Assembly (NCBI GenBank): GCA_045537045.1
Contig: JAZSOS010000023.1
Span: 21,175-85,174, forward strand
From: Eubacteriales bacterium
GTDB taxonomy: Bacteria; Bacillota; Clostridia; Oscillospirales; JAAYXM01
Reading direction: 5' to 3'
Length of the DNA stretch: 64,000 bases
The notes beneath the pieces were generated by a model that saw only the letters and a program-made list of their open reading frames with translations, was not told the DNA's origin and ran no database searches. Below, piece after piece: positions 6,502-56,909 of this stretch (position 1 is its first letter; every line of letters begins with the position of its first letter). The position numbers were made by a program, and so were the translations under genes.

Positions 6502-6558
6502 ATTTTATCTTTATGTTTTTTATCTTTAAATTATAGTATAACACACATAAAGGAAAAT

Positions 6559-9893: not shown

Positions 9894-10044
9894 TATAAAC
9901 TCCTCCTTTTATATTGCACTATACGGCAGTTTTTGAAAAAAGTTTCCTGAGTTTTAAAAAAAAGGACACGCAAAAGCGAAAATACAGATAATATGCGTGT
10001 GTGTACTTTGCGGAACAAGCCGCAAAAGATACCCATAATAAGTA

Positions 10045-22220: not shown

Positions 22221-22232
22221 ATCTACCCCGGC

Positions 22233-24656
22233 TTATTCGCTTATCTTCTTCAAATTCCAGATATTATTCGCATATTCAGTTATGCTGCGGTCTGCAGCAA
22301 AGCGTCCGGCATTAGCAATGTTGATAAGCGATTTTCTGTTAAACAGCTCCTTATCTCTGTACTCGCGGTAAATTTTGTCATGCGCTTCGCAATAAGACGC
22401 AAAATCCGCAAGAAGCATATACTGATCATGGAAAAGGAGAGAATTTACAATATCGGGATATGAATTTCGCAGCACGCCGACACCTATACCGTCACGGATA
22501 TGGTCAAGAACTCTGCGGAGTTTTGGATCATTATGATAGTAATCTATCGGTGAATACGTTCCGGAGGCTGCCAGAGCCGCCACTTCGTGCGCTTTCATAC
22601 CGAATATATAGATATTCTCCTCACCAACCGCTTCGCATATCTCGACGTTTGCACCGTCAAGCGTACCGATAGTGAGCGCGCCGTTGAGCATAAACTTCAT
22701 ATTTCCCGTTCCTGAGGCTTCTTTACCGGCAATTGATATTTGCTCAGAAATTTCCGCCGCAGGAATCATAAGTTCTGCTATTGAAACATTATAATCCTCA
22801 ACAAACACTACTTTAAGCTTATCCGCCACCCTCTTATCAGAGTTTATCTCAGATGCAACGGAGTTGATTAACCTGATTATATTCTTTGCCATAGCGTATC
22901 CCGCCGCTGATTTCGCACCAAAGAAATATGTTTTCGGTTTAAAATCCATTCCGGGATTGTCAAGTAGCATATGGTATTCATAAAGAATATGCAGAACATT
23001 GAGAAGCTGACGCTTATACTCATGCAGTCTTTTCGACTGAACGTCGAAAATCGAGTCCGGATTTATATTCGTATCAAAGGACATTGCATTTACAAATCTT
23101 ACTTTGTTGTTATGCTTTATCTCGGAAAGCCGCTCCAGAACAGACTTATCATCAGAATACTTTTCAAGCTTTTTAAGAGCCGATGCATCGTAGCGGAAAT
23201 CATTTCCGATAAGCTCGGAAATAAGCGAGGTAAGCTCAGGATTTGCCTGACAGAGCCATCTTCTGTGAGCTATACCGTTGGTTACGTTAGTGAATTTCCC
23301 CGGGAACATATAGTTGTAATCCGAGAAAACAGTTTCCTTTAAAATGTTGCTGTGAAGCGCAGAAACACCGTTTACGGAAAAACATGTTGCTATACAGAGA
23401 TTTGCCATGCGGATTTCGCCGTTTGCAATGATTGCAAGCTTTCCTATCTTCTCTCTGTCTTCAGGGAAGGCGTTCCATAAATCATCACAGAACCTTCTGT
23501 TGATTTCTTCCACAATCATATAAATTCGCGGAAGAAGATGCCTGAACATCGAAATTGTCCAACGTTCCAGTGCTTCTGCCATTATCGTATGGTTTGTATA
23601 CGCCATACATTTTGATACGATCTCCCAGCTTTCATCCCAGCTGTATTCCTCTTCATCAATAAGAATACGCATAAGCTCTGGAATGGCAAGTGTCGGGTGC
23701 GTATCATTGATGTGAATGATAGCCTTATCTGCAAAATTGCGGAGTGTTCCGTATTTTGCCTTATGCTTTTTCACAATGCTTGAAATGGTTGCAGATACAA
23801 AGAAATACTGTTGCTTGAGTCGCAGCGACTTTCCTTCCTCGTGGTTGTCCTCAGGATACAGAATTTTGGAGATGACCTCACTCATCGCCTTCTGCTCCAT
23901 AGATTTTGCATACTCACCCTTTGAGAAAAGGTGCATATCAATACTTTTCGTAGACTTTGCACTCCACAAACGTAATGTGTTGACATTTTTTCCGGGATAT
24001 CCGGATATCAGCATATCGTTCGGCACAGCAAGCACGGTGTAATAATCGTGATGAGAGAATTTAAGCTTGCCGTCTTCCATATAGCTGTCAACCTTGCCGC
24101 CGAACCTTACCTCCTGAGTTTCCTCAATTCTCGGCACAGTCCATACACTTCCGGTTTCAAGCCAGTTATCAGGAAGCTCTACCTGCATTCCGTCGATGAT
24201 TTTCTGCTTGAATATTCCGTATTCATACAGTATGGAAAAGCCCATTCCCGGATAGTCCATAGCTGTGAGCGAATCCATATAGCACGCTGCAAGACGGCCG
24301 AGGCCACCGTTACCGAGGCCTGCATCGCGCTCTACCCCGAACAGCTCATCAAGCGACAAACCTAAGGTTTCAAACGTATTTGCAAACACCTCAGAAAGTC
24401 CGAGATTGTTAATATTGTTGTGCAGAGACTTGCCGATAAGAAACTCCATTGACAGATAATAAACCTGCCGGAGTTCTTTCTTTTCTATTTCATCCTGCGC
24501 ACGAGCCCAGTTTTCCATCAACACATCACGAATGATAAATGAGCAAGCGGAATATAATTCTTCATAACTTGCCTCATTTATTTCTTTTCCAAAATGTCTT
24601 GAAAGCTTACCGGCAATAAGCTCCTTTAATTTTTTTTCATTCAAGTGTATCCCCAT
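22233..24656 (-). CDS. glgP: glycogen/maltodextrin phosphorylase
   Basis: 807 aa. GT35 family, PLP-site block EASGTGNMKFMLNGALTIGTLDGANVE. Confidence 0.95.
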   Translation of the reverse strand: MGIHLNEKKLKELIAGKLSRHFGKEINEASYEELYSACSFIIRDVLMENWARAQDEIEKKELRQVYYLSMEFLIGKSLHNNINNLGLSEVFANTFETLGLSLDELFGVERDAGLGNGGLGRLAACYMDSLTAMDYPGMGFSILYEYGIFKQKIIDGMQVELPDNWLETGSVWTVPRIEETQEVRFGGKVDSYMEDGKLKFSHHDYYTVLAVPNDMLISGYPGKNVNTLRLWSAKSTKSIDMHLFSKGEYAKSMEQKAMSEVISKILYPEDNHEEGKSLRLKQQYFFVSATISSIVKKHKAKYGTLRNFADKAIIHINDTHPTLAIPELMRILIDEEEYSWDESWEIVSKCMAYTNHTIMAEALERWTISMFRHLLPRIYMIVEEINRRFCDDLWNAFPEDREKIGKLAIIANGEIRMANLCIATCFSVNGVSALHSNILKETVFSDYNYMFPGKFTNVTNGIAHRRWLCQANPELTSLISELIGNDFRYDASALKKLEKYSDDKSVLERLSEIKHNNKVRFVNAMSFDTNINPDSIFDVQSKRLHEYKRQLLNVLHILYEYHMLLDNPGMDFKPKTYFFGAKSAAGYAMAKNIIRLINSVASEINSDKRVADKLKVVFVEDYNVSIAELMIPAAEISEQISIAGKEASGTGNMKFMLNGALTIGTLDGANVEICEAVGEENIYIFGMKAHEVAALAASGTYSPIDYYHNDPKLRRVLDHIRDGIGVGVLRNSYPDIVNSLLFHDQYMLLADFASYCEAHDKIYREYRDKELFNRKSLINIANAGRFAADRSITEYANNIWNLKKISE

Positions 24657-24680
24657 TAAATGTACCTCTTCGTTATAAGA

Positions 24681-26126
24681 TTATTCGCAAATCAGAGCGT
24701 CATACAGCTTATTGTATTCTTTAGCTGGTTTTTTCCATGAAAAATCGACGCTCATCCCATTCTCAATAAGCTTTGCCCATTTTTCCTTATTGCGGTAGCA
24801 ATCGCATGCCGCGCGTATTACGCCGAGCATCTCATGTGCATTATATTCAGAAAAGACAAAGCCGTTTCCTTCTCCTCTTTCAGCGTCATACTGCGAAATG
24901 CTGTCCCCAAGTCCGCCGGTTTTTCGCACAATCGGAATTGTTCCGTAGCGGAGCGCGATCATCTGAGCAAGACCGCACGGCTCGCTTTTTGACGGCATAA
25001 GGAACATATCAGAGCCGGCATATATTTTCTGCGCAAGCTCACTGTTAAAGGCGATATTTACCGACAACTTAAACGGATACTGCCACTGCTTATCACGCAG
25101 GAACTGTTCATATTTCCAGTCCCCTGTTCCTACAATGACCATCTGGACATCATCCTCAAGAAGCTCATCAATAACGCATGAAACCAAATCAAGACCTTTA
25201 TGTGAAACAAGGCGCGTTACCATACCGATAACGGGAATATCTCCGTTTTTCGGCAAATTCACAAGTGACTGAAGCTCTTCTTTATTCTGAGCTTTTCCTG
25301 TCATATCCTTTTTCGAGTAGTTAAAGAAAATCCTCTTATCCTTTGCCGGGTCATAAAGCTTCTGGTCGATGCCGTTAATTATTCCGCAAAGCTTGCCTTC
25401 CTCATAACGCAAAATTTCATGAAGGCCATGGGCATACTCCGGAGTTTTTATCTCTTCGGCATATGACGGACTTACGGTAGTTACGCGGTCGGAACAGGTA
25501 ATGGCTGCCTTCATCAGATTAACAGCGCCGCCAAATTCAAGGAAGCCGTTATTAAACTCTTCTATCGGCAAACCAAGAACGTTTTCCACAATTTCTCTGT
25601 CGAAAATGCCCTGATATTCTATATTATGAATCGTGAATACAGTTTTGATACGCTCATACCCCGGACGCATATAGTATTTAAGCTTATAATAAATCGGCAC
25701 AAGCGCGGTCTGCCAGTCGTGAGAATGAATGACATCCGGATAATAATCAATATAGGGCAGAATTTCAAGAACCGCCGTGGAGAAAAACGCGAAGCGCTCT
25801 GCATCATCATAGCATCCGTACAGCGCACCACCACGCTTAAAGTAGTATTCATTATCTATAAAATACCACGTTACGCTTTTTTCTTCGTACTTAAAAATAC
25901 CGCAATACTGACTTCTCCACGCAAGCGGGATAAATATATTGGTTACCGGAACAAGCTTGCGCCTTACCTTTTCCGGAACTCCCTCGTGAAGAGGAATAAC
26001 AACAGCAACCTCGCAATTTTTGCCGGATATAGCCTTCGGGAGCGAACCGATAACATCGCCCAAGCCTCCGGATTTTATGAACGGTGCAGCCTCGGACGCT
26101 GCAAAAAGTATTTTTTTCTTTTCCAT
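24681..26126 (-). CDS. glgA: glycogen synthase (ADP-glucose type)
   Basis: 481 aa with N-terminal KSGGLGDV motif. GT5 family. Confidence 0.95.
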   Translation of the reverse strand: MEKKKILFAASEAAPFIKSGGLGDVIGSLPKAISGKNCEVAVVIPLHEGVPEKVRRKLVPVTNIFIPLAWRSQYCGIFKYEEKSVTWYFIDNEYYFKRGGALYGCYDDAERFAFFSTAVLEILPYIDYYPDVIHSHDWQTALVPIYYKLKYYMRPGYERIKTVFTIHNIEYQGIFDREIVENVLGLPIEEFNNGFLEFGGAVNLMKAAITCSDRVTTVSPSYAEEIKTPEYAHGLHEILRYEEGKLCGIINGIDQKLYDPAKDKRIFFNYSKKDMTGKAQNKEELQSLVNLPKNGDIPVIGMVTRLVSHKGLDLVSCVIDELLEDDVQMVIVGTGDWKYEQFLRDKQWQYPFKLSVNIAFNSELAQKIYAGSDMFLMPSKSEPCGLAQMIALRYGTIPIVRKTGGLGDSISQYDAERGEGNGFVFSEYNAHEMLGVIRAACDCYRNKEKWAKLIENGMSVDFSWKKPAKEYNKLYDALICE

Positions 26127-26141
26127 AATTCCTCCAAAAGT

Positions 26142-27263
26142 TTATAATTTACAGCCCATGGGAAGCACGGTGGGATACATTTCCGCTCCGCGGAGAGAAA
26201 CACCTTTTGATATAACGACCTGCCCGTCGGTGATGCAATACTCAAGCTTTGCATCCTCACCGATATCCGCACCCTGAAGAATGACACAGTTTTTAACAGA
26301 AGCACCTTTGCCGACACGGACGTTTCGTGAAATAATTGAGTTTTCGACAGTGCCCTCAATCACACAGCCATCGGCAAGCATGCTGTTCTTTACAACCGCT
26401 TCTTCACCGAACATTGACGGAACTTCATCAAATATATGTGTTGCAATCTCGCCACCGCTAAAGAGCTCGTCTCTTGTTTTTTCATTGAGCAAATCAAGAT
26501 TTACCTTGAAATACGATTCAACGGAATCTATTTTCTCGGCGTAACCCTTATACTCGCACGCATAGATGTCAAGTGACTGCGCCATATCCTGAATGATGTC
26601 GCGCTCAAAATCATACTTGTTATGCGCAACACATTGGCAGATCAAAAACTCCAGCAAACCACGCTCAATGATATACGTTCCGAGAAGCATATTGCTGTGG
26701 AGCTGTATATCCTGATTTATTGTTATATCCTTAATTCTACCGTCCTTGTCAACATCAATAAAAGCATTGTTTTTAAACTTTGACGGTTCATATACCTCTG
26801 CTTTATACAGTGCTGTCATGTACGCCTGCTTCTCGATATGCGTTTGGAGAAGCTCGGTGTAATCTATATTTGCGATAAGATTTCCGTCTGAGAGCAGGAT
26901 GTATTTACAGTCGCAATTTCTGATATAATCAATAATTCCCATAAGAACAGATATCTTTCCGTTTCTTTCAGAAAACATATCGCGGCTTCCGATAGACGGC
27001 GGTAAGATTGAAAGTCCACCTTTTTTACGGTTCAAATCCCATTCCTTACCAGTACCGAGATGGCTCATAAGCGAATAATAATCGCTTTTGGTAACAACAC
27101 CCACGTTTTTAATTCCGGAATTAACCATACTTGAAAGTGTGAAATCTATCATACGGTATCTTCCGCCAAAAGGCACGGAGGCTGCTGTTCTGTTTTCCGT
27201 AAGTTCGCGCATCGCATCAACCTTGTCGTGCGCAAAAATTATCCCCAAAGTATCTCTTATCAT
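26142..27263 (-). CDS. glgD: glucose-1-phosphate adenylyltransferase, GlgD subunit
   Basis: 373 aa. GlgC paralogue lacking the GGxGxRL motif. Its start overlaps the glgC stop by 4 nt, as in Firmicute glgCD pairs. Confidence 0.88.
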
Positions 27264-28474
27264 AACGCCACCTCCGCATCGGGAATGTCTTCTTCCACTA
27301 TGGTGCCGGGTTCTATCCGGGCATTACTGCCTACCGTAAGCGAATTTCCAACAACAGTTATTTTTTTGCGTTCACCCTCTGCCGGAGCTGCGCCTATTCT
27401 GGCGCCCGCTCTGACAGTAACATTCTCCGCTATAATTGAATACTCAATAACTGCGCCGTCCTCAATTACGCTTCCGGGCATTATAATTGAGTTGTTTACA
27501 ACGGCGTCTTTACCTATCTTTACGTCATAAAAAATTATGGAGTGGTCAACCGTTCCGCAGGTATAACAGCCTTCGGCGATCATGGACTTTTTTACAACGG
27601 CATCCGTTGAAATGAACTGAGCCGGCTTTACGGGGTTCCTTGCATAAATTCTCCAGCCTTTATCGTGGAGAACAAGTCCACTTCCAGGAGTTATAGCGTC
27701 CATATTCGACTCCCACAAGCTGTCTATCGTTCCGACATCCTTCCAATAGCCTTTATACTCATACGCAAAAAGCTTTTTACCGTCTCCAAGCATCTTGGGG
27801 ATAATGTTTTTACCGAAATCGTTCTGGCTTTCGGGATTGTTTTCATCCTCTATAAGATATTTTTCCAGAACCTCCCATGTGAAAATATACACACCCATAG
27901 ACGCTTTGGTGCTTTTTGGTTTTTTGGGTTTTTCCTCAAACTCATAGATGGAATTGTCATCACGAAGATTCATTATTCCAAAGCGCGAAGCTTCCTCAAT
28001 CGGCACATCAATTACCGCTATTGTACAATCCGCCTTCGCTTTTTTGTGTTCACGGAGCATCCAGTCGTAATTCATTTTATAAACGTGGTCTCCTGAAAGA
28101 ACAAGAACATACTTAGGGTTAAAGTTTCTTATAAAGTTTATGTTCTGGTAAATCGCGTTTGCTGTTCCCTTGTACCATGCTCCGCTTGTGCTTGTCATAT
28201 ACGGAGGCAGAATTGCAACACCGCCGTTGGAGCGGTCGAGATCCCATGGCTGGCCGTTTCCGATATATGTGTTGAGTTCAAGCGGCTGATACTGAGTAAG
28301 TACGCCTACCGTATCAATACCCGAGTTGATACAGTTAGACAGCGGAAAGTCTATAATCCTGTACTTTCCGCCAAACGGAACTGCCGGCTTTGCCACGTTT
28401 TTCGTAAGTACGTGAAGTCTGCTTCCCTGCCCGCCGGCAAGAAGCATTGCGATACATTCCTTGGATTTTAACAT
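27260..28474 (-). CDS. glgC: glucose-1-phosphate adenylyltransferase
   Basis: [10 protein letters not shown] nucleotide-binding motif and left-handed beta-helix C-terminus. ATG 28474 behind AAGGGA is preferred over GTG 28480. Confidence 0.93.
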
Positions 28475-28480
28475 TTTCAC

Positions 28481-30382
28481 TCATCCCTTTCTCCTGATAA
28501 AAATCACACTCATCGGCGGTAAAGTCAATGAAAGACAGCTCTCACCCCCGCATGCACTGTTTGTTTTTATATACGGTGGGTATTCTGTTCCGCTCCCTCC
28601 GTACTTTTCCTTATCACTGTTGAAAACAACTCTGTAGCTTCCGGCAGCCGGGACACGGAACGTATACCCTTCCCGCGTAACCGGCGAAAGATTGAGTGCC
28701 GCAATTATCTCTTTGCCATCGCTGTTTTTTCTTTTGAATATAATGACATTGCTGTCGGAATCGTCAACCGTCACCCACTCAAAGCCTTCCCAGCCGGTGT
28801 CCATTTCCCAAAGCTCGGAATTTTTGAGATAAAATTTATTTAAATCACGGACATATTCATGCATTTTACGATGCATATCAAATTCGAGCAGATTCCAGTC
28901 CAGCTCCTTCTCGTAATTCCATTCCGAAAACTGAGCAAATTCATTTCCCATAAAGCTGAGTTTCTTTCCCGGATGTGCAATTATATACCCCAGCATAGCT
29001 CGAAGTCCCGCGAATTTTTGCCAGTAATCTCCGGGTTGTTTGCCTATCAGTGAACATTTGCCGTGAACAACCTCGTCGTGAGAGAACGGAAGAATATAGT
29101 TTTCGGAAAAAGCGTAGGTCAGAGAAAACGTAAGCTCATTATGTTTATATTTTCTGAAAATCGGGTCTGTTGAAAAATACCTGAGTGTATCATTCATCCA
29201 TCCCATATTCCATTTAAAATGGAAACCAAGCCCGTTCATATAGGGCGGTTTTGTAACCATCGGCCATGCGGTTGACTCTTCAGCAATCATAATTATATCA
29301 GGATATGCCCCGCAAACCGTCCCGTTAAGCTCCTTGAGAAAATCCACAGCTTCGAGATTTTCATTCCCACCGTAGCTGTTTGCACGCCACTGACCGTGAG
29401 ACTTACCATAATCAAGATAAAGCATACTCGCAACCGCATCTACGCGTATACCGTCTATATGAAAATATTCGCACCAGAAAACTGCATTTGATATTAGGAA
29501 ATTTTTTACTTCATTTCTGCCGTAATCAAATATCCGCGTTCCCCAATCGGGATGCTCGCACTTCAGTGGATCGGAATACTCATACAATGTTCTTCCGTCA
29601 AACTCGTAAAGCCCGTGTGCGTCTTTGGGGAAATGAGCTGCCACCCAATCTATGATTACACCGATGCCGCACTTATGGCACTCATTAATAAAATGCATAA
29701 AATCCTTCGGCGTTCCGTATCTTGAGCTTGCGGCAAAATATCCCGTAACCTGATATCCCCACGAGCCGTCATACGGAAACTCGGAAACAGGTAATAACTC
29801 AATATGGGTATATCCCATCTTCTTGACATAAGGAACAAGCTCTCTTGCTAAGTCCTTATAAGAATAGAAATTCCCGTCCTGATGCTTTTTCCAAGAGCCC
29901 GGATGCACCTCATATATATTCATTGCTTCCGAAAAAACGCTATGTTCCGACCTGTATTTAAGCCAGTTTTTATCGCCCCAACGGAAACCATCTATGTCAT
30001 AGATTTTTGATGCGGTTCCGGGACGGGTTTCCGCATGAAACGCATACGGGTCTGCTTTTAAGAGCGTCGTTCCATATGTTGTGTCAATGCTGTATTTATA
30101 TATGTCGTATTCACCGAGAGACGGGACAAACACTTCCCAGACAGTTTTGTCGTCCTCGGGATTTTTCATAACATTGGCATTTTTGTCCCAGTTATTGAAA
30201 TCACCTACAACGGAAACCGACACGGCATCCGGTGCCCACACTCTGAACACAACGCCTGGCGCGCCATCCTCTTCTGTAAAGTGCGCACCGAAATATTTAT
30301 ACGCATATATATCTTTTCCCTGATGAAACAACCACCTGTGTTCTCTGCTCTCTGCATTTTCATAATTCCTGTTACAAAGCAT
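28481..30382 (-). CDS. glgB: 1,4-alpha-glucan branching enzyme
   Basis: 633 aa. GH13 branching-enzyme blocks (DWVAAHF, GIRVDAVASM, AEESTAWP, SHDEVVHGK). Confidence 0.95.
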   Translation of the reverse strand: MLCNRNYENAESREHRWLFHQGKDIYAYKYFGAHFTEEDGAPGVVFRVWAPDAVSVSVVGDFNNWDKNANVMKNPEDDKTVWEVFVPSLGEYDIYKYSIDTTYGTTLLKADPYAFHAETRPGTASKIYDIDGFRWGDKNWLKYRSEHSVFSEAMNIYEVHPGSWKKHQDGNFYSYKDLARELVPYVKKMGYTHIELLPVSEFPYDGSWGYQVTGYFAASSRYGTPKDFMHFINECHKCGIGVIIDWVAAHFPKDAHGLYEFDGRTLYEYSDPLKCEHPDWGTRIFDYGRNEVKNFLISNAVFWCEYFHIDGIRVDAVASMLYLDYGKSHGQWRANSYGGNENLEAVDFLKELNGTVCGAYPDIIMIAEESTAWPMVTKPPYMNGLGFHFKWNMGWMNDTLRYFSTDPIFRKYKHNELTFSLTYAFSENYILPFSHDEVVHGKCSLIGKQPGDYWQKFAGLRAMLGYIIAHPGKKLSFMGNEFAQFSEWNYEKELDWNLLEFDMHRKMHEYVRDLNKFYLKNSELWEMDTGWEGFEWVTVDDSDSNVIIFKRKNSDGKEIIAALNLSPVTREGYTFRVPAAGSYRVVFNSDKEKYGGSGTEYPPYIKTNSACGGESCLSLTLPPMSVIFIRRKG

Positions 30383-35324: not shown

Positions 35325-38300
35325 TTAATATTCAAACTCGCCCTCATACACGAGATGCGCACTTCCGGTCAAAAGAATGCACTCGTCCGTATAATTTACG
35401 ACAAGCTCGCCGCCCGGCAGCTTTACAACTATATCCTTTTCCTTTTCGCAGAATCCGTTTTCCACTGCGGCAACAACCGCGGCGCATGCACCCGTTCCAC
35501 AGGCAAGTGTTTCTCCGTTTCCGCGCTCCCACACACGGGTTCTGAGCGTGGTAGGATTTATCACACGCACAAATTCCGTATTTATGCGCTCCGGAAAGAC
35601 ATCCGCACATTCAAAGCGAGGGCCCGTCTCCGCAAGGTTTAAGCTATCCAGAGCATCATAGAACACAACGCAGTGCGGGTTTCCTACTGAAAGGCAAGTT
35701 ATGTTATAGCTTCCGCCTGCAATTTTAACGGGATAATTTACAAGCTTTTCCTCAGACAGCAAAGTCGGAAGTGATTTTGCCGAAAGGTCTGCCTTTCCCA
35801 TATTTACAGCCACGGAGCTTACCTTTCCGTCGCGCAGATAAAGCTTCATACGATATATGCCACTGCCGGTTTCCACAGACATATACTCACTTCTTACATA
35901 CCCTTTATCGTAAAGGTACTTGGCTACACAGCGGATACTGTTACCCGCCATTTTGCCCTCGCTTCCGTCGCGGTTGAATGAGCGCATTTTCGCATCAGCA
36001 ACTGTTGATTTTTCAATCAGGACAATCCCGTCACCGCCGATGCCGTAATGGGGCGTACAAAGATTTACGCACAGCGACTCAGCACACGTGAGCTTGCCGT
36101 CAAAGTTTTCTATGAAGATATAATCGTTGCCGCAGGAATGCATTTTTGCAAAGCGGATTTTCTGCCTCCATAGACGCATCGCGTTGATATCTACAAGCTC
36201 CGTGTTGGAAATAGTAAACCGGCTTTCTATGATATCGGCAAGTGCGTTGGCGGTATCCAAGGATGTAAGGCACGGAAGCCCAAGCTGCATTGCGCGGCGG
36301 TGAAGTTTAGTGTAATCGCCTACCGTTGCATCCTTTACTGCACCGGTATAGACAATATAATTAAGCGTTCCGCTTTCCATAAGCTCATAAAGATCATTGT
36401 TCTCCGTTGCATTCGCGACGGAAACAACATCTATACCTGCTTCTGCTATTGCAGCCGCCGTGCCGGTAGTTGCATAAAGCGTTATACCCGCATCAGAAAA
36501 GCGCTTTGCCAGAGATATAATCTCCTGATAGTCGCTTTCTTCAACGCTTACAAGCACCCCCGCCCCTTTCTCGGTATGGGGTGACGGAACAGTGAATCCC
36601 GCCGAGGTGAGACCCTTGAACAGAGCCTCTGCCATTGTTTTTCCTATTCCGAGAACCTCGCCCGTGGATTTCATTTCCGGACCGAGAATTGAATTTACAT
36701 CGTTTAACTTTTCAAACGAAAACACCGGAACCTTTACTGCATAGTACGGCGGAGTGCGATATAATCCAGTACCGTAGCCAAGTTCACGCAGGCTCGCACC
36801 AAGCATTACCTTTGATGCAAGATCTACCATCGGCACATTTGTGACCTTACTGATATACGGAACGGTTCTTGATGCACGCGGGTTCACCTCAATGACATAA
36901 AGCTCATTATCGTAAATAAGATACTGAATATTTACAAGGCCTTTCGTTTTCATCGCAAGAGCAAGCTTTTCCGAACAGTCGCACACCTTCTGCAGGAATT
37001 TATCGTTTAAGTTATACGGTGGATAAACGGCGATTGAATCTCCGCTGTGAACACCCGCACGCTCGATATGCTCCATAATGCCGGGAATGAGAACATCACG
37101 TCCGTCAGATATTACATCCACCTCAAGCTCTGTACCCGGCATATATTTATCAACAAGCACGGGGTTTTCTATGCCGCCGGAAAGAATGGTTTTCATATAC
37201 TTTTCCGTATGCTCGGGAGATCTTGAAATCGTCATATTCTGCCCGCCGATAACATATGACGGACGCAGAAGAACCGGATAACCGAAGCTTTCGGCTGCGG
37301 CAAGCGCCTCTTCGACGGTATTTACACCCATACCACGCGGACGCTTTATTCCGAAGCTTTCAAGAAGCTCATCAAAGCGGCTTCGATCTTCTGCAACATC
37401 TATACTTTCAGCTGATGTTCCGAGGATTTTTATGCCGTTTTTGTCAAGGAACTGCGTAAGCTTTATTGCAGTCTGCCCGCCGAATGCAACAACAACTCCG
37501 ACCGGATTTTCAACGCGAATGATATTCATTACATCTTCCGGTGTAAGCGGTTCAAAGTAAAGCCTGTCTGCCGTGTCATAGTCTGTCGAAACGGTTTCGG
37601 GATTGTTGTTTACTATCACAACGTCATATCCCATTTTGCGCAACGTCCAGACACAATGGACAGAGCTGTAATCAAACTCAATTCCCTGCCCGATACGGAT
37701 AGGACCGGATCCCAGCACCATAACAACGGGCTTTCCGCTGCGTGGGAAACGGCGGGAATCGCAGGATGAATCGTTACACGAATAGAAATACGGTGTTTTA
37801 GCTGAAAAACGTGCAGCGCAGGTGTCAACCATCTTATAGCTGAAGCTGTGCTCCGGAAGCTTTTTTGCCCCGCTGATGCGCGCTATCGCGACATCGGTAT
37901 AGCCAAGTTTCTTTGCCTGCATATAATCGCCATCGGAGAGTCCGTTTGCAATTTTCTTTTCAAAATCGGCAAGATTTTTTATTTTTGCAAGGAAGAAACG
38001 GTCTATTTTTGTTATATCAAATATTTCGTCTATTGAGACACCAGCTTTTAAAGCCTCGAACACGGTAAATATACGCCGGTCGTTCTGTTCGGCAAGGCGC
38101 GCAATTACCGGACGGTTATCAAGTGCAGGAGCATCAAGCGTATCAAAGGATATTTCCGCACCGCGGACTGCTTTCATTATCGCTTCTTCAAAGCTCTGCC
38201 CGATAGACATTACCTCGCCGGTCGCCTTCATCTGTGTTCCGAGCTTGCGCTCGGACTCCGTGAACTTATCAAACGGCCATTTAGGGAACTTTACAACAAC

Positions 38301-39836
38301 ATAATCTATCGTGGGTTCTGCAAGAGCACTTGTAACGCCGGTTATGTCGTTGCGGATTTCATCCAGAGTATAGCCGAGAGCGATTTTTGTGGTTATCTTC
38401 GCAATCGGATAACCCGTGGCTTTTGACGCAAGCGCGGAGGAACGCGAAACGCGCGGATTTACCTCTATTACCGCATATTCAAAACTATCAGGATTCAGCG
38501 CAAACTGACAGTTACATCCGCCGACAATTCCTATGGCTGAAATAATGTCAAGAGAAGCCTTGCGGAGCATCTGATACTCTTTATCTGAAAGCGTCAGCGC
38601 GGGCGCTGCGACAATGGAATCACCGGTATGTATACCCACCGGATCGAAATTTTCCATAGAGCATATAATTATGGCGTTTCCGGCACTGTCGCGCATTGTT
38701 TCAAACTCAATTTCTTTCCATCCCGCGATGCATTTTTCGATGAGCACCTGAGTTATCGGAGACATATCAAGCCCGTTCTTGGCAATAATGCGAAGCTCTT
38801 TCTCGTCCCCGGCAATTCCTCCCCCCGTACCACCAAGCGTAAACGCAGGACGGACAATTACGGGATAACCTATCTTTTCCGCAATGGCAAGCGCGCCTTC
38901 GACATTATCGGTAACATCCGACGGAACGCACGGCTGACCAATCTCTTTCATAGTATCGCGGAAAAGCTCTCTGTCTTCTGCCTTGTCAATGGCATCGACA
39001 TCTGTACCGAGAAGGCGGACATTGTACTTTTCAAGAGTTCCGTTTCTTTCAAGCTGCATTGCGATAGTAAGCCCAGTCTGCCCGCCGAGACCGGCAAGCA
39101 GTCCGTCCGGACGCTCTTTTTCAATTATACGCGCAACCGTCTCTGCATTGAGCGGCTCAAGATAAATCTCGTCTGAGAGGTTTTTATCCGTCATTATCGT
39201 CGCGGGATTAGAGTTTACAAGAACAACGTTTATTCCCTCTTCACGGAGCACACGGCACGCCTGAGCCCCCGCATAGTCAAACTCTGCCGCCTGGCCGATA
39301 ACAATAGGTCCTGAGCCGATTACTAAAACCTTTTTAATTGATGCATCGCGAGAAGATTTCGCGCTGTTTTCTCTGTAAAGCAGCTTAGCGTTACAGTTTT
39401 CAGTTGCAGGTTGTTTTTCAGGCTTTTCGGGCAGTTTTTGCGGAATATCGTCACAAATCACGGCGCTTACCGCCTCTTTATCCCTCAGAATGCGGATAAT
39501 CTCACGCGTATCCACACCGGAGATGCCGCACACACCTTTTTCCTTTAAATATTCATCGAGACGCCCTTCAGAACGAAAATTTGACGGAGCATCACAAAGC
39601 TCACGCACAACGAATCCGAGAGGAGCGTTCTCCCCTATTTCTTCATCCGTTATTATACCGTGGTTTCCTACAAGCGGAAATGCAGACACCACAATTTTCC
39701 CGGCATTTTCTTCCCGGGAGAGAATTTTCATATACTCTGTCTCTGTTGTAAAAACAAGTTCGCCGACAGCGTTGTTTAATGCGCCTACCCGCTTTCCCTC
39801 AAACACATCACCTGTACCGAGCACCAGATATGCCAT
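35325..39836 (-). CDS. carB: fusion protein: CarA N-terminal domain + carbamoyl-phosphate synthase large subunit (CarB) + DapF-like (diaminopimelate epimerase fold) domain
   Basis: Single uninterrupted 1503-aa frame from ATG 39836 (SD GGAGGA 8 nt upstream). Approximate domains: aa 1-130 CarA N-domain, aa 168-1225 CarB (two ATP-grasp halves plus MGS-like allosteric domain), last 278 aa DapF-like (KMHSCGNDY, FNRDGSE, GNPHCV, ERGNGETLACGTGACA). Confidence 0.85.
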   Translation of the reverse strand: MAYLVLGTGDVFEGKRVGALNNAVGELVFTTETEYMKILSREENAGKIVVSAFPLVGNHGIITDEEIGENAPLGFVVRELCDAPSNFRSEGRLDEYLKEKGVCGISGVDTREIIRILRDKEAVSAVICDDIPQKLPEKPEKQPATENCNAKLLYRENSAKSSRDASIKKVLVIGSGPIVIGQAAEFDYAGAQACRVLREEGINVVLVNSNPATIMTDKNLSDEIYLEPLNAETVARIIEKERPDGLLAGLGGQTGLTIAMQLERNGTLEKYNVRLLGTDVDAIDKAEDRELFRDTMKEIGQPCVPSDVTDNVEGALAIAEKIGYPVIVRPAFTLGGTGGGIAGDEKELRIIAKNGLDMSPITQVLIEKCIAGWKEIEFETMRDSAGNAIIICSMENFDPVGIHTGDSIVAAPALTLSDKEYQMLRKASLDIISAIGIVGGCNCQFALNPDSFEYAVIEVNPRVSRSSALASKATGYPIAKITTKIALGYTLDEIRNDITGVTSALAEPTIDYVVVKFPKWPFDKFTESERKLGTQMKATGEVMSIGQSFEEAIMKAVRGAEISFDTLDAPALDNRPVIARLAEQNDRRIFTVFEALKAGVSIDEIFDITKIDRFFLAKIKNLADFEKKIANGLSDGDYMQAKKLGYTDVAIARISGAKKLPEHSFSYKMVDTCAARFSAKTPYFYSCNDSSCDSRRFPRSGKPVVMVLGSGPIRIGQGIEFDYSSVHCVWTLRKMGYDVVIVNNNPETVSTDYDTADRLYFEPLTPEDVMNIIRVENPVGVVVAFGGQTAIKLTQFLDKNGIKILGTSAESIDVAEDRSRFDELLESFGIKRPRGMGVNTVEEALAAAESFGYPVLLRPSYVIGGQNMTISRSPEHTEKYMKTILSGGIENPVLVDKYMPGTELEVDVISDGRDVLIPGIMEHIERAGVHSGDSIAVYPPYNLNDKFLQKVCDCSEKLALAMKTKGLVNIQYLIYDNELYVIEVNPRASRTVPYISKVTNVPMVDLASKVMLGASLRELGYGTGLYRTPPYYAVKVPVFSFEKLNDVNSILGPEMKSTGEVLGIGKTMAEALFKGLTSAGFTVPSPHTEKGAGVLVSVEESDYQEIISLAKRFSDAGITLYATTGTAAAIAEAGIDVVSVANATENNDLYELMESGTLNYIVYTGAVKDATVGDYTKLHRRAMQLGLPCLTSLDTANALADIIESRFTISNTELVDINAMRLWRQKIRFAKMHSCGNDYIFIENFDGKLTCAESLCVNLCTPHYGIGGDGIVLIEKSTVADAKMRSFNRDGSEGKMAGNSIRCVAKYLYDKGYVRSEYMSVETGSGIYRMKLYLRDGKVSSVAVNMGKADLSAKSLPTLLSEEKLVNYPVKIAGGSYNITCLSVGNPHCVVFYDALDSLNLAETGPRFECADVFPERINTEFVRVINPTTLRTRVWERGNGETLACGTGACAAVVAAVENGFCEKEKDIVVKLPGGELVVNYTDECILLTGSAHLVYEGEFEY

Positions 39837-39904
39837 TTTAACATTCCTCCTGTCAAAACACATTATGAGGCAAAACATATCAACCGGATATGCTTTGCTC
39901 CGTC

Positions 39905-39946
39905 TAAAAAAGCAAGCAGACATATGAACGCAGCATATGTCCGCTT
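39905..39946 (-). terminator. intrinsic terminator/attenuator between argF and the CPS fusion ORF
   Basis: 13-bp stem AAGCGGACAUAUG/CAUAUGUCUGCUU (39946-39934 / 39926-39914), followed by GCUUUUUU. Confidence 0.7.
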
Positions 39947-39955
39947 ACCGTGTAT

Positions 39956-40939
39956 TTATAAAGTCGCAGCCATTACCGCTTTTATAGTGTGCATACGGTT
40001 TTCAGCCTCATCAAAAACAATGGACTGTTTTCCCTCGATAACCTCGTCGGTTACTTCCATTGCATCAATGCCGAATTTATCATAGATTTGCTTTCCGATA
40101 GTAGTTTTAAGGTCATGGAATGCAGGCAGACAGTGCATAAAGCGGCACTGCTCTCCGGCGTTTTCCATTATGCGCGAATTGACCTGATACGGGAGCAGGT
40201 CTTCAATTCTTTCTTTCCATACTTCGTCCGGCTCGCCCATTGACACCCATACATCAGTGTAAATAACGTGTGCATCCTTTGTTGCAACCATGGGGTCTTC
40301 GATAAATTCAAGAACAGCGCCTGTTTCCTTTGCAATTCCCTGACAGGTTTTAACAAGTTCTTCATCAGGGAAATATTTTTTCGGCGCGCAGGCAACAAAG
40401 TGCATACCCATCTTCGCACATCCTACCATAAGGGAATTGCCCATATTGTAACGTGCATCTCCCATGTATACGAGTTTTTTGCCGGAAAGATTGCCAAAAT
40501 GCTCTTTTATCGTGAGAAAATCGGCAAGAATCTGGGTCGGATGAAATTCGTTTGTAAGCCCGTTCCATACAGGCACTCCCGCATACTTTGCCAGCTCTTC
40601 CACAACTTCCTGACCAAATCCGCGGTATTCAATACCGTCAAACATTCTGCCGAGGACGCGTGCCGTATCAGCAATGCTTTCCTTTTTACCGATCTGTGAG
40701 CCCTGAGGGTCGAGATATACGGGATGCATACCAAGATCTGCCGCAGCAACCTCAAATGCACAGCGGGTGCGTGTGCTTGTCTTTTCAAATATGAGAGCTA
40801 TGTTCTTGCCTTCGAATGTCTTATGCGGGATTCCGCGCTTTTTCTTTGCCTTATACTCAGAGGCAAGATCTATGAGATAATTGATTTCTGCAGGTGTAAA
40901 GTCAAGCAGCTTCAAGAAATGTCTTCCCTTTAAATTCAT
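39956..40939 (-). CDS. argF: ornithine carbamoyltransferase
   Basis: 327 aa. Motifs STRTR, HPTQ, DVWVSMG, HCLP. Confidence 0.95.
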
Positions 40940-40960
40940 ATCGGCATTTTCCTTTCAAAA

Positions 40961-42127
40961 TCATTGCGCACAAGCGCTTTTTATAACGGCAACAGCCTCT
41001 TTAAGAATATCCATCGGGATATTGAGCGATGGAAGAAGACGAACCTTATCCTTTGCCGTAAGGCAAAGAACACCATTTTCCATACACTTTTTCACAACGT
41101 CGCCTGCCGCCCTTTTAGTCTTTATACCAATCATAAAACCCATACCGCTTACGGACTCGACACCGTCAGCGCCGCAAAGCTCATCAAAGATATATTTACT
41201 TTTGCTCTTTACGTCTGCAAGAAGCTTATCGTCAATTCTTTCAACAATGCTTATTGCGCCTGCCGAGCTTACGGGGTTTCCTCCGAAGGTCGAACCGTGG
41301 TCGCCAAAGCCGAGGACGTTCTTCACTTTATCGGAAAGAAGCACCGCGCCAATCGGTAAACCGCCGCCAAGACCTTTCGCCGTTGACACTACATCCGGTT
41401 TTATACCGAAGTTCATATACGCATACATTTCTCCAGTTCTGCCGTTACCGGTCTGAACCTCATCTACAATGAGAATTATATCGTTTTCTGCCGCATACTG
41501 CGCAGTTTTCTTAACAAAATCAGCCTCAAGAGGAAGCACGCCGCCCTCACCCTGGATACACTCTATCATAATTGCGGCAACCTTATTGTTTTCAGCAGTT
41601 TTAACGAGCGCATCAAAGTCGTTTGCAGGAGTATGAACAAAGCCGGGTGTTAGCGGACAGAACAGCTCGTGGTAATGCTCCTGACCAGTAGCCGCAAGAG
41701 TTGTAAGAGTTCTGCCGTGGAAGCTGTTTTCAAGCGTGATTATCGTAAAACAATCCTTCCCCTTTTTATCTGCTGCATATTTTCTTGCAACCTTTATTGC
41801 ACATTCATTTGCTTCTGCACCGGAGTTGCCGAAGAACACCTTGCTCATTCCCGTCTTTTCACACAGAAGCTTTGCAAGACGCGCACACGGCTCGGTATAA
41901 TAGAGATTGGACATATGCTGAACCTTGGAAAGCTGGTCGACTACTGCATTTTTCCACTCGTCATCCGCTATTCCGAATGCTGTTACGCCGATGCCGGTCC
42001 CCATATCAATGTAACGCTTGCCGTCGGTGCCGTAAACCTCGGCACCCTTACCGTGGGAGATTTCTATCGGAAATCTGTTGTATGTTCCGGCAACGTATTC
42101 CTTATCAATAGAAGTAATATTACTCAT
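40961..42127 (-). CDS. argD: acetylornithine aminotransferase
   Basis: 388 aa. Class-III aminotransferase, DEVQTG..RTG, PLP Lys in TAKGLGGG. Confidence 0.92.
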   Translation of the reverse strand: MSNITSIDKEYVAGTYNRFPIEISHGKGAEVYGTDGKRYIDMGTGIGVTAFGIADDEWKNAVVDQLSKVQHMSNLYYTEPCARLAKLLCEKTGMSKVFFGNSGAEANECAIKVARKYAADKKGKDCFTIITLENSFHGRTLTTLAATGQEHYHELFCPLTPGFVHTPANDFDALVKTAENNKVAAIMIECIQGEGGVLPLEADFVKKTAQYAAENDIILIVDEVQTGNGRTGEMYAYMNFGIKPDVVSTAKGLGGGLPIGAVLLSDKVKNVLGFGDHGSTFGGNPVSSAGAISIVERIDDKLLADVKSKSKYIFDELCGADGVESVSGMGFMIGIKTKRAAGDVVKKCMENGVLCLTAKDKVRLLPSLNIPMDILKEAVAVIKSACAQ

Positions 42128-42992
42128 TTTTACCTCCGGTTACCATCGTACCCGCACCTTCATCAGTGAGAAGCTCCATAAGAATGGAGTGGGATACTCT
42201 TCCGTCCATGATGATTACGTTTTTTACACCCTCGTGAATTGCTTCTATGCAGCAATTTACCTTCGGAATCATACCGCCGGATATGACCCCCTCTTTATAC
42301 AGAGAAGCAGCTTCGTCTATCGTGATTTCCGTGATAAGCGTTGACGGGTCATCCTTATCGCGTAGGATGCCTGCGATATCCGTCATCATTATAAGACGCT
42401 CTGCACCAAGCGCACCTGCAATGTATGCTGCAGCGGTATCACCGTTGATGTTGTATGTATTTCCTTCCGCATCGCAGCCAAGAGTTGAAATTACGGGGAT
42501 ATAGTTCTTTTCAAGCAGGTCAATAACCGGCTTTATATTGACTTTGGTAATGTCTCCGACATATCCAAGGCGCTCATCACGCATTTTTGACTCAATAAGG
42601 CGTCCATCCATACCGGAGATTCCCATAGCCTTGCCGCCCTTCATTTCAAGAAGGTTTACAAGCGTTTTGTTTACCTTACCGGCAAGTACCATCTGGACAA
42701 TATCAACAGTTTCTTTATCGGTTACGCGAAGACCGTCCACAAACTCTGCCTTCTTGCCAAGACGAGACATAAGGTCATTGATTTCCGGACCGCCGCCGTG
42801 AACAAGAACTATTTTTACACCGATAAGCCACAGAAGAACGATATCCTCCATAACCTGTTCTTTGAGCTGTTCGTCAATCATTGCGTTTCCGCCGTATTTG
42901 ACAACAACGATTTTGCCGTTGTATCTCTGTATGTAAGGCAGAGCCTGGGTTAAAACCTCTGCGCGCTCTGCATTTGAAAAAAAGCCTTCCAT
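42120..42992 (-). CDS. argB: acetylglutamate kinase
   Basis: 290 aa. VVKYGGNAM, LVHGGGP, amino-acid-kinase fold. Overlaps the argD start by 8 nt. Confidence 0.95.
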   Translation of the reverse strand: MEGFFSNAERAEVLTQALPYIQRYNGKIVVVKYGGNAMIDEQLKEQVMEDIVLLWLIGVKIVLVHGGGPEINDLMSRLGKKAEFVDGLRVTDKETVDIVQMVLAGKVNKTLVNLLEMKGGKAMGISGMDGRLIESKMRDERLGYVGDITKVNIKPVIDLLEKNYIPVISTLGCDAEGNTYNINGDTAAAYIAGALGAERLIMMTDIAGILRDKDDPSTLITEITIDEAASLYKEGVISGGMIPKVNCCIEAIHEGVKNVIIMDGRVSHSILMELLTDEGAGTMVTGGKNE

Positions 42993-43005
42993 AATACTTT
43001 CTCCT

Positions 43006-44229
43006 TTATGTACGGTAGTCTCCGTTTATTTTCACGTAATCGTAAGTAAGGTCACAGCCCCAGGCTGTCGCGCCAAACTCTCCGTCACCTACGGAAACGA
43101 TAATCTCGATTTCAGGTTCAAGGAGAATTTCCTTTGCAATCTCTTCGGAGAACGGAACACCCGCTCCGTTTTTGCAGACCGAAATTTCGCCCTTTGCACT
43201 CTTAAACGAAACGTCGACACGGCTAACATCAACAGCAGCGCCGCTGTAACCTATTGCACAGAGAACGCGTCCCCAGTTTGCATCTGCACCGAACATTGCC
43301 GCCTTTAAAAGACTTGAGCAAATAACACTCTTTGCAACGGTCTTTGCCGTAGCTGAGCTTGACGCACCGCTGACGGTGCACTCAAGCATCTTTGTAGCGC
43401 CCTCGCCGTCTGCTGCTATCATCCGGCAAAGGTGGACAGTAACAGTATTGAGAGCTTTCATAAACACTGCAAAGTCTTCATCCTCGGTGGTAACCTCAGC
43501 ATTACCTGCCATACCGTTTGCAAGGACGGTTACCATATCGTTGGTAGACGTATCGCCGTCGATACTTACCATATTGAACGTATCTTTTATATCCGCAGAC
43601 AGCGCTTTCTGCAAAAGCGCCGGGGATATAGCCACGTCGGTTGTAATGAAAACAAGCATAGTCGCCATATTGGGATGGATCATACCGCTTCCCTTAGCGA
43701 TGCCGCCCATTCTGCAGACTTTACCGCCAAGCGTGAACTCTACGGCGATTTCTTTTTTAACGGTATCCGTTGTCATAATTCCCTCTGCAGCAACCTCACC
43801 GCCGTCAACAGAAAGACCTGCAGAAAGTGCCGGAAGCCTGTCTGCAATTGGGGTGATATCAAGTGGCTGACCGATAACACCGGTGGACGCGACAACAATG
43901 TCGTTAGCAGAAATACCAAGAGCCGATGCCGTAAGCGCGCTCATTTTCTCCGCCACCTCAATGCCGTCTGCATTGCAGGTGTTGGCGTTTCCGCTGTTGC
44001 AGATAACAGCCTGCGCATACCCGTCGGATATATGATTTTTTGTAACAGTAAGCGGTGCGCCCTTGACGAGGTTGGTAGTATACACAGCCGCAGCTGATGC
44101 CCGAACGTCACTTGCTATAAGCGTAAGGTCTCTCTTTGTTTTATTTTTTCTGATACCACAGTGAATACCATTTGCCCTAAAGCCTTTTGCGGCACATACT
44201 CCGCCGTTTATAATCTTCATTTTTATCAC
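43006..44229 (-). CDS. argJ: bifunctional ornithine acetyltransferase/N-acetylglutamate synthase
   Basis: 407 aa. Autoprocessing region HPNMATMLVFITTD and C-terminal YVKINGDYRT. Confidence 0.95.
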   Translation of the reverse strand: MIKMKIINGGVCAAKGFRANGIHCGIRKNKTKRDLTLIASDVRASAAAVYTTNLVKGAPLTVTKNHISDGYAQAVICNSGNANTCNADGIEVAEKMSALTASALGISANDIVVASTGVIGQPLDITPIADRLPALSAGLSVDGGEVAAEGIMTTDTVKKEIAVEFTLGGKVCRMGGIAKGSGMIHPNMATMLVFITTDVAISPALLQKALSADIKDTFNMVSIDGDTSTNDMVTVLANGMAGNAEVTTEDEDFAVFMKALNTVTVHLCRMIAADGEGATKMLECTVSGASSSATAKTVAKSVICSSLLKAAMFGADANWGRVLCAIGYSGAAVDVSRVDVSFKSAKGEISVCKNGAGVPFSEEIAKEILLEPEIEIIVSVGDGEFGATAWGCDLTYDYVKINGDYRT

Positions 44230-44240
44230 CGTTTCCTTTG

Positions 44241-45164
44241 TTAAACGTTAAGTCCTGTTTTTTCATCCACACCGAGAAGGATGTTCATATTTTGAATTGC
44301 TGAGCCGGATGCGCCTTTGCCAAGATTATCAAACCTCGACACGAGAAGAATTCTCTCATCATTGCCGCAGACGGATATTTCCATATCGTCGCGATTAGAC
44401 AATGCGCCTGCCGACATAAAACCCGTTTCATCAGCAGTATCAGTATAGCGGACAAGACCATTCTTATAATAATCAGCATAAACCCTTTTTATATCTTCGA
44501 TACTGCCCTGAATTTGATTTGCGTGGAGCGGAATTGTAACTTCCATTCCGCTGTAATACGGAGCTACTATCGGACAGAACACCGGTGCAGACATGAGGCC
44601 ACATACCTTGACGATTTCCGGAAGATGCTTGTGAGTCTGTGAAAGGCCGTACATCCTGGGTGCATCAAGAAGAACACTCCGCTCTGCAGCTTCATACTCC
44701 GCTATCATCTTCTTTCCGCCTCCGGAATATCCGGTGAGCGAAAAAGCAGATAACTGAAGCTCACGTCCTATAACTCCCGCTTCAACCAGCGGTGCCGTAA
44801 GCGCAACAACGCCGCTTGCGTGGCAACCGGGGTTTGCAATGCGCTTTGAAGCTTTTATTTTGTCACGACCGCCTGAGATTTCCGGAAAACCGTATGCCCA
44901 CGAATCATTTGTGCGGTGGGCAGTTGATGTATCAATAACCGCGGTATTTTTACTCTCGACCATGCTTACAGCCTCAATTGCTGCCGCATCCGGCAGGCAG
45001 AGAAAAACGATATCCGCCGCATTGAGCATTTCACGGCGGGCAGATGCGTCCTTACGCAGCTCCTCTGAAAGAAGCATAAGCTCTATATCACGTCTTCCTG
45101 CCAATCGCTCGTGAATGCGCAGCCCCGTTGTTCCCGCGCTTCCGTCAATAAATACCTTAGTCAT
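44241..45164 (-). CDS. argC: N-acetyl-gamma-glutamyl-phosphate reductase (short type)
   Basis: 307 aa. Active-site NPGCH and C-terminal DNLGKGASG. Confidence 0.92.
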   Translation of the reverse strand: MTKVFIDGSAGTTGLRIHERLAGRRDIELMLLSEELRKDASARREMLNAADIVFLCLPDAAAIEAVSMVESKNTAVIDTSTAHRTNDSWAYGFPEISGGRDKIKASKRIANPGCHASGVVALTAPLVEAGVIGRELQLSAFSLTGYSGGGKKMIAEYEAAERSVLLDAPRMYGLSQTHKHLPEIVKVCGLMSAPVFCPIVAPYYSGMEVTIPLHANQIQGSIEDIKRVYADYYKNGLVRYTDTADETGFMSAGALSNRDDMEISVCGNDERILLVSRFDNLGKGASGSAIQNMNILLGVDEKTGLNV

Positions 45165-56906: not shown

Positions 56907-56909
56907 ACC

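Follow-up and report, generated by a model that had tools for sequence, protein, structure and literature searches.

The arginine-operon carbamoyl phosphate synthase (CPS) encoded on contig JAZSOS010000023.1 of an Eubacteriales bacterium (assembly GCA_045537045.1; the 64,000-nt stretch analysed here is referred to as the window) ends in a complete diaminopimelate epimerase (DapF)-like domain, which is fused in frame to the C-terminus of the large subunit, CarB, and lacks one of the two catalytic cysteines. In this domain, which we call DapF*, the first thiol is replaced by Ala, and the second thiol and the binding pocket for diaminopimelate (DAP) are retained under purifying selection. The loss of the thiol is specific to one clade, and sister fusions with both cysteines exist. 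The fusion itself is present in at least 80, and probably more than 500, related species. As the leading one of several readings, and still a tentative one, we propose that DapF* may bind DAP without epimerising it and, as a module of the arginine CPS, regulate that enzyme or keep it in an oligomer.

A CarA-CarB-DapF fusion with a single thiol

Direct reading of the window gives an uninterrupted minus-strand open reading frame (ORF) from 35325 to 39923. The ATG at 39834-39836 is the likely start codon; it follows a GGAGG by 9 nt, and translation from it begins with MAYLVL, which matches the CarA starts in the related loci L004 and L005. The gene and its parts are as follows.

35325-39836, minus strand: whole gene, a triple fusion of CarA N-domain, CarB and DapF* (1503 aa from the likely start; stop codon TAA at 35325-35327)
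39846-39850, minus strand: GGAGG ribosome-binding site, 9 nt 5' of the likely start, read from the sequence
39456-39827, minus strand: CarA N-terminal (CPSase_sm_chain) domain (PF00988, aa 5-128, E = 6.7e-30)
39348-39455, minus strand: short linker where the glutaminase (GATase) domain is missing (from the alignment; no GATase match in the window)
36219-39347, minus strand: complete CarB, with two ATP-grasp halves, oligomerisation domain and MGS-like allosteric domain (NF003671, TIGR01369, Pfam)
36159-36218, minus strand: CarB-DapF junction, in which the CarB C-terminal strand NTELVDINxMR and about 8 residues are followed by DapF strand 1
35328-36158, minus strand: DapF-like domain (DapF*), 277 aa, with the full two-lobe fold (TIGR00652, PDB matches, AlphaFold model)
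35946-35948, minus strand: Ala codon GCG, opposite catalytic Cys73 (E. coli numbering) in the alignment
35499-35501, minus strand: TGT, the second catalytic Cys, kept, equivalent to Cys217 (from the alignment)
35346-35348, minus strand: Tyr codon TAT, equivalent to the dimer-interface Tyr268 of E. coli DapF (position 335 of the 341-aa query)

The CarB portion (aa 165-1207) matches NF003671 with 1436 bits (cutoff 599) and TIGR01369 with 1407 bits (cutoff 1027), and its Pfam domains occur in the order expected of a full CarB. About 20 residues after the end of this match, without a stop or a change of frame, the DapF match begins: aa 1228-1502 match TIGR00652 over its full length with 265-270 bits, above the curated cutoff of 114.65, and PF01678 in two repeats, which places the domain in the DapF family by its profile hidden Markov model. 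The initial annotation of this DNA had described an in-frame CarB-DapF fusion with no stop codon at the junction, and the single open frame, which has neither a stop nor a frameshift there, agrees with it; what that account missed was the CarA N-domain without a glutaminase and the existence of fusions with two cysteines. A separate internal start for DapF was considered and rejected: the sole GGAGG, formed by the codons TGG AGG, is 21 nt away from the Met of KMH and encodes a Trp-Arg pair that is unconserved.

In alignments with the solved DapF structures 2OTN, 9MRO and 3EJX, the MAGNS of the query falls opposite the MCGNG/SCGNG motif of the first catalytic Cys, and ACGTGAC falls opposite the second. 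Both residue assignments made from the sequence at the outset, namely Ala encoded by GCG in place of the first thiol and a retained second thiol in ACGTG, are thereby borne out, the former to the exact codon. The structure-based alignment gives 38-40% identity to 2OTN and 9MRO, and phmmer matches 2OTN with E = 2e-66. DapF* has Cys217 and, in place of Cys73, Ala; by this thiol pair it is not a candidate functional DapF, and by descent, as judged from the alignments, it is a DapF.

For the residue comparison, 84 members of the clade were set against 55 canonical or two-cysteine sequences in E. coli numbering, with an E. coli DapF reference sequence that was checked only for its length and at nine key residues. 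Of the residues that are invariant in the canonical set, Cys73 alone is replaced in every clade member (Ala in 70, Gly in 14). Within the clade, N64, G74, N75, N157, H159, N190, E208, R209, C217, G218 and T219 are 95-100% kept, and Gly8 is relaxed; all of the DAP-contact residues (N11, N64, G74, N75, N157, N190, E208, R209, G218 and S/T219) are present in the window's domain. Of 120 relatives, 119 have Tyr or Phe as the Tyr268 equivalent. No conserved Cys, Ser, Thr, Asp or His substitutes for Cys73 in the clade alignment; position 9 (Cys, Thr or Ser) is equally variable in canonical DapFs, and position 76 is Asn, Ser, Ala or Cys. A relocated catalytic cysteine was also rejected, as the candidates C98, C141, C227 and C289 (numbering of the 341-aa query) occur in canonical DapFs too. 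Because Ala and Gly interchange repeatedly at position 73 inside the clade, the side chain there appears to have no role.

By the Nei-Gojobori method, the ratio of nonsynonymous to synonymous substitution rates (dN/dS) is 0.04-0.21 for the DapF domain, a range taken from pairs with unsaturated dS, and 0.03-0.12 for CarB in the same gene pairs. DapF* therefore combines two marks of a pseudo-enzyme, the clade-wide loss of an essential catalytic residue and a pocket retained under purifying selection. An AlphaFold (AF2) model that spans the MGS and DapF region of the 1503-aa protein has a mean predicted local distance difference test score (pLDDT) of 88 and is predicted to form the two-lobe DapF fold. 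Foldseek superposes it on 9MRO_A, a ligand-bound cyanobacterial DapF, with a template-modelling (TM) score of 0.91 and a root-mean-square deviation of 1.8 Å; its other structural relatives include 2Q9H, which is close, and 6R76 and 4K7G, at 13-15% identity.

Distribution of the fusion and order of events

A protein search with the junction and the DapF domain found more than 120 metagenomic proteins (59-78% identity) that span the junction fully, mostly as gene fragments on short contigs. At the Cys73 position these proteins have Ala in 115 cases and Gly in 6, and the second Cys is kept in 120 of 121. In a scan of one genome per species with the junction alignment (A1), a tblastn check confirmed at least 507 relatives; the locus-level figures given here cover the best 80 of these. 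The 80 are gut and rumen metagenome-assembled genomes (MAGs) plus one isolate, with labels that include Oscillospiraceae, Acutalibacteraceae, Oscillibacter, Dysosmobacter, Ca. Limivicinus, Faecousia, Christensenellaceae and similar. carB and dapF share one frame in every retrieved locus, the 60-nt spacing between the CarB and DapF matches is near-constant, the linker is conserved, and the fused ORF is usually 1342-1356 aa long. Position 73 is Ala in 68 of these genomes, Gly in 12 and Cys in none, and position 217 is Cys in 76 and Ser in 1. The initial annotation had called for read mapping or PCR across the junction to exclude a sequencing error, and for a BLAST search of the domain and junction. 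Conservation across at least 80 species excludes chance and a sequencing error here, and the protein search gave the metagenomic proteins that span the junction.

Two kinds of damaged gene were observed among the relatives. At locus L001 (ENA ERZ27247188 k141_60464), carB::dapF has two in-frame TAG codons, at about 8612-8614 and 9989-9991, both in carB, which stand where a Ser (NPRVSR[S]SALASKATG) and a Glu (MEHI[E]RAGVHSGDS) are conserved; the frame is intact otherwise. L001 and L002, from two samples, share one 574-aa truncated product, and the gene could be a recent pseudogene or subject to some form of recoding. At locus L044, a frameshift at about 2410-2413 lies inside the DapF domain and divides the match over two frames at residue 67-70; it reflects either an error of assembly or a pseudogene.

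It is worth noting how the fusion appears in databases. The full-length forms (about 1350 aa) sit in protein clusters that are represented by short fragments, so that searches list pieces of less than 600 aa, and a listing of cluster representatives can make the CarB-DapF fusion resemble a partial-gene artefact. Database labels for the fusions go no further than "carbamoyl-phosphate synthase large subunit" and "diaminopimelate epimerase, partial".

Position 73 was surveyed further in the 150 best representatives at 50% identity. The proteins with Ala or Gly at this position are, without exception, either extended at the N-terminus, in the region where CarB is expected, or short fragments; the full-length stand-alone DapFs all keep Cys73, except for one with Ser. 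CarB-DapF fusions with two cysteines also exist, namely P0125 (1349 aa, from a MAG labelled Oscillospiraceae), P0122, P0124 and P0159; at the P0125 locus, carA-carB::dapF stands alone, outside an arginine operon. A neighbour-joining tree gathers the Ala/Gly fusions into a single clade, in which Gly arises several times among Ala, and places P0122, P0124 and P0125 with stand-alone Oscillospirales DapFs; as the tree was rooted at its midpoint and has no bootstrap support, these groupings are provisional. Since sister fusions with both cysteines exist, dapF was probably fused to carB first, as a still active enzyme, and the thiol would have been lost later, once, in the ancestor of a large subclade. 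For the same reason, it is the conserved loss of the thiol in that subclade, and not the fusion, that is unusual.

A mirror variant was observed in P0176 (692 aa), P0228 (1046 aa) and P0251 (742 aa), which have a strongly degenerate CarB-like N-terminus followed by a two-cysteine DapF; two of them are annotated as "diaminopimelate epimerase [Clostridiales bacterium]". Here it seems to be the CarB half of the fusion that has decayed, along the opposite path.

Possible role of DapF*

DapF clamps shut on its substrate DAP, and DapF mutants with a single Cys-to-Ala change are reported to lack epimerase activity. CPS, for its part, already bears domains that derive from enzymes and have no catalytic function: the allosteric MGS-like domain and, in CPS I, an inactive glutaminase-like domain. 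We suggest that a genuine DapF was fused, still active, to the end of CarB, and that the Cys73 thiol was then lost in an Oscillospirales subclade. DapF* would no longer interconvert LL- and meso-DAP, and most likely it would still bind DAP, or a very close two-headed amino acid, without turnover. Clamp closure on this ligand, at a short distance from the CPS allosteric domain, could make DapF* a ligand-responsive or oligomerising add-on, a role suggested by the clamping of DapF on its substrate, the linker of about 8 residues and the retained dimer aromatic. Such a module would possibly tie carbamoyl-phosphate supply to the aspartate-derived branch that leads to DAP, lysine and the cell wall; the possible logic is that DAP reports the state of this branch, which rivals arginine and pyrimidine synthesis for aspartate. 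We infer the ligand binding, the absence of epimerase activity and any effect on CPS from sequence and predicted structure. Rather more guardedly, we put forward the more specific statement that the one-thiol DapF is an allosteric or oligomerisation module that makes the arginine CPS DAP-responsive, or alternatively that it has acquired a new one-base chemistry on a DAP-like substrate.

Normal two-base epimerisation by DapF* is very unlikely, because Cys73 is needed in DapF, no conserved residue replaces it, and Ala and Gly interchange at its position. The argument made at the outset, that a canonical two-base epimerase cannot work with one thiol, is a reasonable one. The loss of one catalytic residue with the rest kept resembles the pattern of substrate-binding pseudo-enzymes, and DapF* is probably more than a scaffold because its pocket is preserved far too well. 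The idea of a pseudo-enzyme or ligand sensor, also raised in the initial annotation, would fit the intact DAP pocket, the purifying selection and the restriction of Ala/Gly to fused copies.

Several points weigh against a non-epimerising DAP-binding module. Asn11 is Asn in 65, Asp in 17 and Ser in 2 of the 84 clade members (Asp in about 20%), so that the pocket is not wholly static. Cys217 is 98% conserved, is not obviously needed by a pure binder and favours some retained chemistry. The interdomain orientation in the AF2 model is unreliable (predicted TM score 0.68, linker pLDDT about 62), and we know of no physiological reason for DAP control of an arginine CPS. In addition, this proposal predicts a second working epimerase, i.e., DapF, Ddh or DapF2, and no second dapF was found in the 64-kb window or in any 20-kb flank of the relatives.

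Evidence for a separate epimerase is circumstantial, at the level of the order or genus. Stand-alone canonical DapFs exist in Oscillospirales (P0272), the P0272 locus being that of an unrelated MAG; when the hits with fused and with canonical forms were compared by eye, they had no contig in common. In SEED tables, Oscillibacter ruminantium has dapF as peg.2707 and dapL as peg.2245, numbers that are not adjacent to either of its arg gene clusters (peg.296-302 and 2096-2099), and Intestinimonas has dapF beside dapL (PMC9026213 supplements). Three Oscillibacter MAGs among the relatives (L062, L065 and L068) carry the fused form.

The main rival explanation is that DapF* is a one-base enzyme, in which Cys217 would deprotonate the alpha-carbon of the D-centre and, as the opposite face lacks an acid, bring about an elimination, a dehydration or another irreversible step on a DAP-like substrate, in parallel to the proline-racemase relatives that turned into hydroxyproline dehydratases after losing one Cys. 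Conservation of Cys217 and the whole pocket at 98-100%, with Cys73 alone gone, would be expected of such an enzyme, as would purifying selection of a strength typical for enzymes, and trans-3-hydroxy-L-proline dehydratases (6R76 and 4K7G) are among the structural relatives of the model. The H. influenzae C73A and C217A DapFs reportedly still carry out stereospecific HF elimination from 3-fluoro-DAP. Nevertheless, we consider this explanation unlikely. These organisms are not known to contain a natural DAP analogue that has a leaving group at the beta position, and the unchanged distal and proximal binding residues indicate that the substrate should be DAP, on which a single base would give no net reaction. 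Moreover, Cys73 is replaced by Ala or Gly rather than by a conserved new functional residue, and the content of the operon gives no hint of a new substrate.

A residual housekeeping epimerase, slow or with water or another residue acting for Cys73, and merely co-expressed with CarB, is less likely still. It is true that DapF* scores well above the DapF equivalog cutoff, that its pocket, Cys217 and dimer residue are intact, and that no other dapF is present in the 64-kb window or the 20-kb flanks examined; the window also has dipicolinate synthase, which makes an active DapA branch probable, and the two-cysteine sister fusions are presumably active epimerases. However, Cys73 is invariant in 55 of 55 canonical sequences and, with a single exception (Ser), is kept by the full-length stand-alone representatives, the clade has no compensating conserved Cys, Ser, Thr, Asp or His, and the interchange of Ala and Gly argues against any chemistry at position 73. 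The reported inactivity of single Cys-to-Ala DapF mutants points the same way, and arginine-operon control would be odd for a cell-wall enzyme.

We give little credence to the possibility that DapF* is a structural relic, kept for CarB folding, stability or dimerisation with ligand binding irrelevant. The fixed linker length, the conserved junction, the conserved dimer-interface aromatic residue and the tightness of the DapF dimer (Kd 22 nM; PMC6061791) are all consistent with a relic, but among domains with 52-60% identity to that of the window, a scaffold would not need a dozen buried ligand contacts conserved at 95-100% together with Cys217. Finally, a sequencing or assembly artefact or a pseudogene, i.e., a lost stop codon combined with a miscalled base, is of negligible probability and was rejected. 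Two homologous loci, L001 (two TAG codons) and L044 (frameshift), do show damage, but nothing in the window points to it, and the same frame, the 60-nt spacing and Ala/Gly recur in 80 species assemblies and 120 metagenomic proteins under purifying selection (dN/dS well below 1).

Genomic setting and known systems

The CPS of the window is assigned to the arginine operon because its gene directly follows argC, argJ, argB, argD and argF, which are all on its strand. The following features were identified by NCBIfam matches.

39956-45164, minus strand: upstream arginine operon argCJBDF
44241-45164, minus strand: argC
43006-44229, minus strand: argJ
42120-42992, minus strand: argB
40961-42127, minus strand: argD
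39956-40939, minus strand: argF

argF is also immediately upstream in 38 of the 51 loci of relatives with enough upstream sequence, and the full argCJBDF is present in about 20, the usual arrangement in the relatives being an argCJBDF-carA-carB::dapF operon. Between the argF stop and the CPS start of the window (39905-39945, minus strand) there is a short inverted repeat rich in A and T (ACATATG...CATATGT) with a T-run after it, which may be a weak terminator or attenuator within the operon.

The lineage of the window differs from most of its relatives in the small-subunit portion of the CPS. A partner CarA with a class-I glutaminase domain is lacking: there is only the CarA N-domain, fused in frame to CarB, and no GATase match was found in the 64-kb window. 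The glutaminase-less CarA-N::CarB form is confined to the window, to L004 (goat-colon MAG RGIG2118, the closest relative), and to the fragments P0471, P0472 and P0485. In L004, the CarA N-domain fused to CarB occupies 6488-7000, as the counterpart of window positions 39348-39836 (minus strand). The TDPSY motif is degenerate, reading SREEN in the window or otherwise TNPEN. The other relatives retain a full separate carA, except for four with none nearby. Because nearly all of these other Ala/Gly relatives keep a full carA, the change of the DapF thiol is unrelated to the loss of the glutaminase, and DapF* as an ammonia supplier in place of the glutaminase was rejected on the same ground. The loss suggests an ammonia-dependent CPS in this small lineage, and probably reflects direct use of ammonia in an ammonia-rich habitat.

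Elsewhere in the window, the dipicolinate synthase subunits DpaA and DpaB (dpaAB) are encoded at 56031-57482 (plus strand), which implies a spore-former that probably has an active dihydrodipicolinate (DapA) branch. A glycogen cluster at 20352-30382 (minus strand) contains an alpha-amylase-family enzyme, glycogen phosphorylase, glycogen synthase and the branching enzyme GlgB, and holds two further ORFs that may be glgC and glgD.

Full-text literature searches found no paper on a CarB-DapF fusion or on a DapF pseudo-enzyme, and no description of a DapF-fold appendage on any CPS, in line with the initial remark that no described fusion was known. CPS is a textbook allosteric enzyme, and DapF* would be a fourth kind of appended domain, one not yet described. 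It would also offer a clean example from nature of an enzyme that becomes a binder, and one whose two-cysteine intermediate survives; the one-thiol domain occurs in at least 80, and probably several hundred, abundant species of the gut and rumen. If the proposed role is true, there would be a direct regulatory link between the cell-wall and lysine branch and arginine synthesis, built from a dead epimerase. There is a consequence for automated annotation as well: because DapF* scores above the DapF equivalog cutoff, and its fragments are labelled "diaminopimelate epimerase", reconstructions of lysine and peptidoglycan synthesis in Oscillospirales may credit a DapF activity that is absent.

Compared with canonical DapF (TIGR00652/PF01678; B. 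anthracis 2OTN, cyanobacterial 9MRO and H. influenzae 1GQZ), DapF* shares the fold, the DAP contacts, Cys217 and the dimer Tyr; it differs in having Ala for Cys73, in forming the C-terminus of CarB, and in being encoded within an arginine operon, not beside dap or lys genes. DapF is known as a protein-level regulator from E. coli, where it regulates RppH whatever its dimeric state, and where the Y268A mutant, monomeric and catalytically inactive, still stimulates RppH (PMC6061791). That interaction, by contrast, is non-covalent and made by a fully active DapF, and its target is an RNA pyrophosphohydrolase with no link to CPS. Engineered DapF mutants resemble DapF* in the loss of a thiol with the fold and pocket intact (C73S, 2Q9H; C217S, 2Q9J; and the E. 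coli C73A/C217A double mutant, which has no detectable activity; PMC6061791), whereas the change in DapF* is natural, clade-wide and under purifying selection.

The two-cysteine CarB-DapF fusions (P0125, i.e., MGI6497870.1, together with P0122, P0124 and P0159/P0406) have the same CarB-MGS-linker-DapF order and the same junction motif as the window's protein, but they keep MCGN with Cys73 and are presumably bifunctional; they are annotated just as "carbamoyl-phosphate synthase large subunit". Trans-3-hydroxy-L-proline dehydratase (6R76, 4K7G) has the same superfamily fold and provides a precedent for a two-thiol racemase that became a one-base enzyme. It differs, however, in belonging to PF05544, at 13-15% identity, with a conserved Thr as the replacement and a substrate that has a leaving group; DapF*, with Ala or Gly and an unchanged pocket, falls in PF01678 and not in this one-Cys, hydroxyproline dehydratase type. 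A further parallel to the proposed role lies within CPS itself, in which the MGS-like domain and the glutaminase-like domain of CPS I are enzyme folds recruited as regulatory modules, as may also have happened with DapF*.

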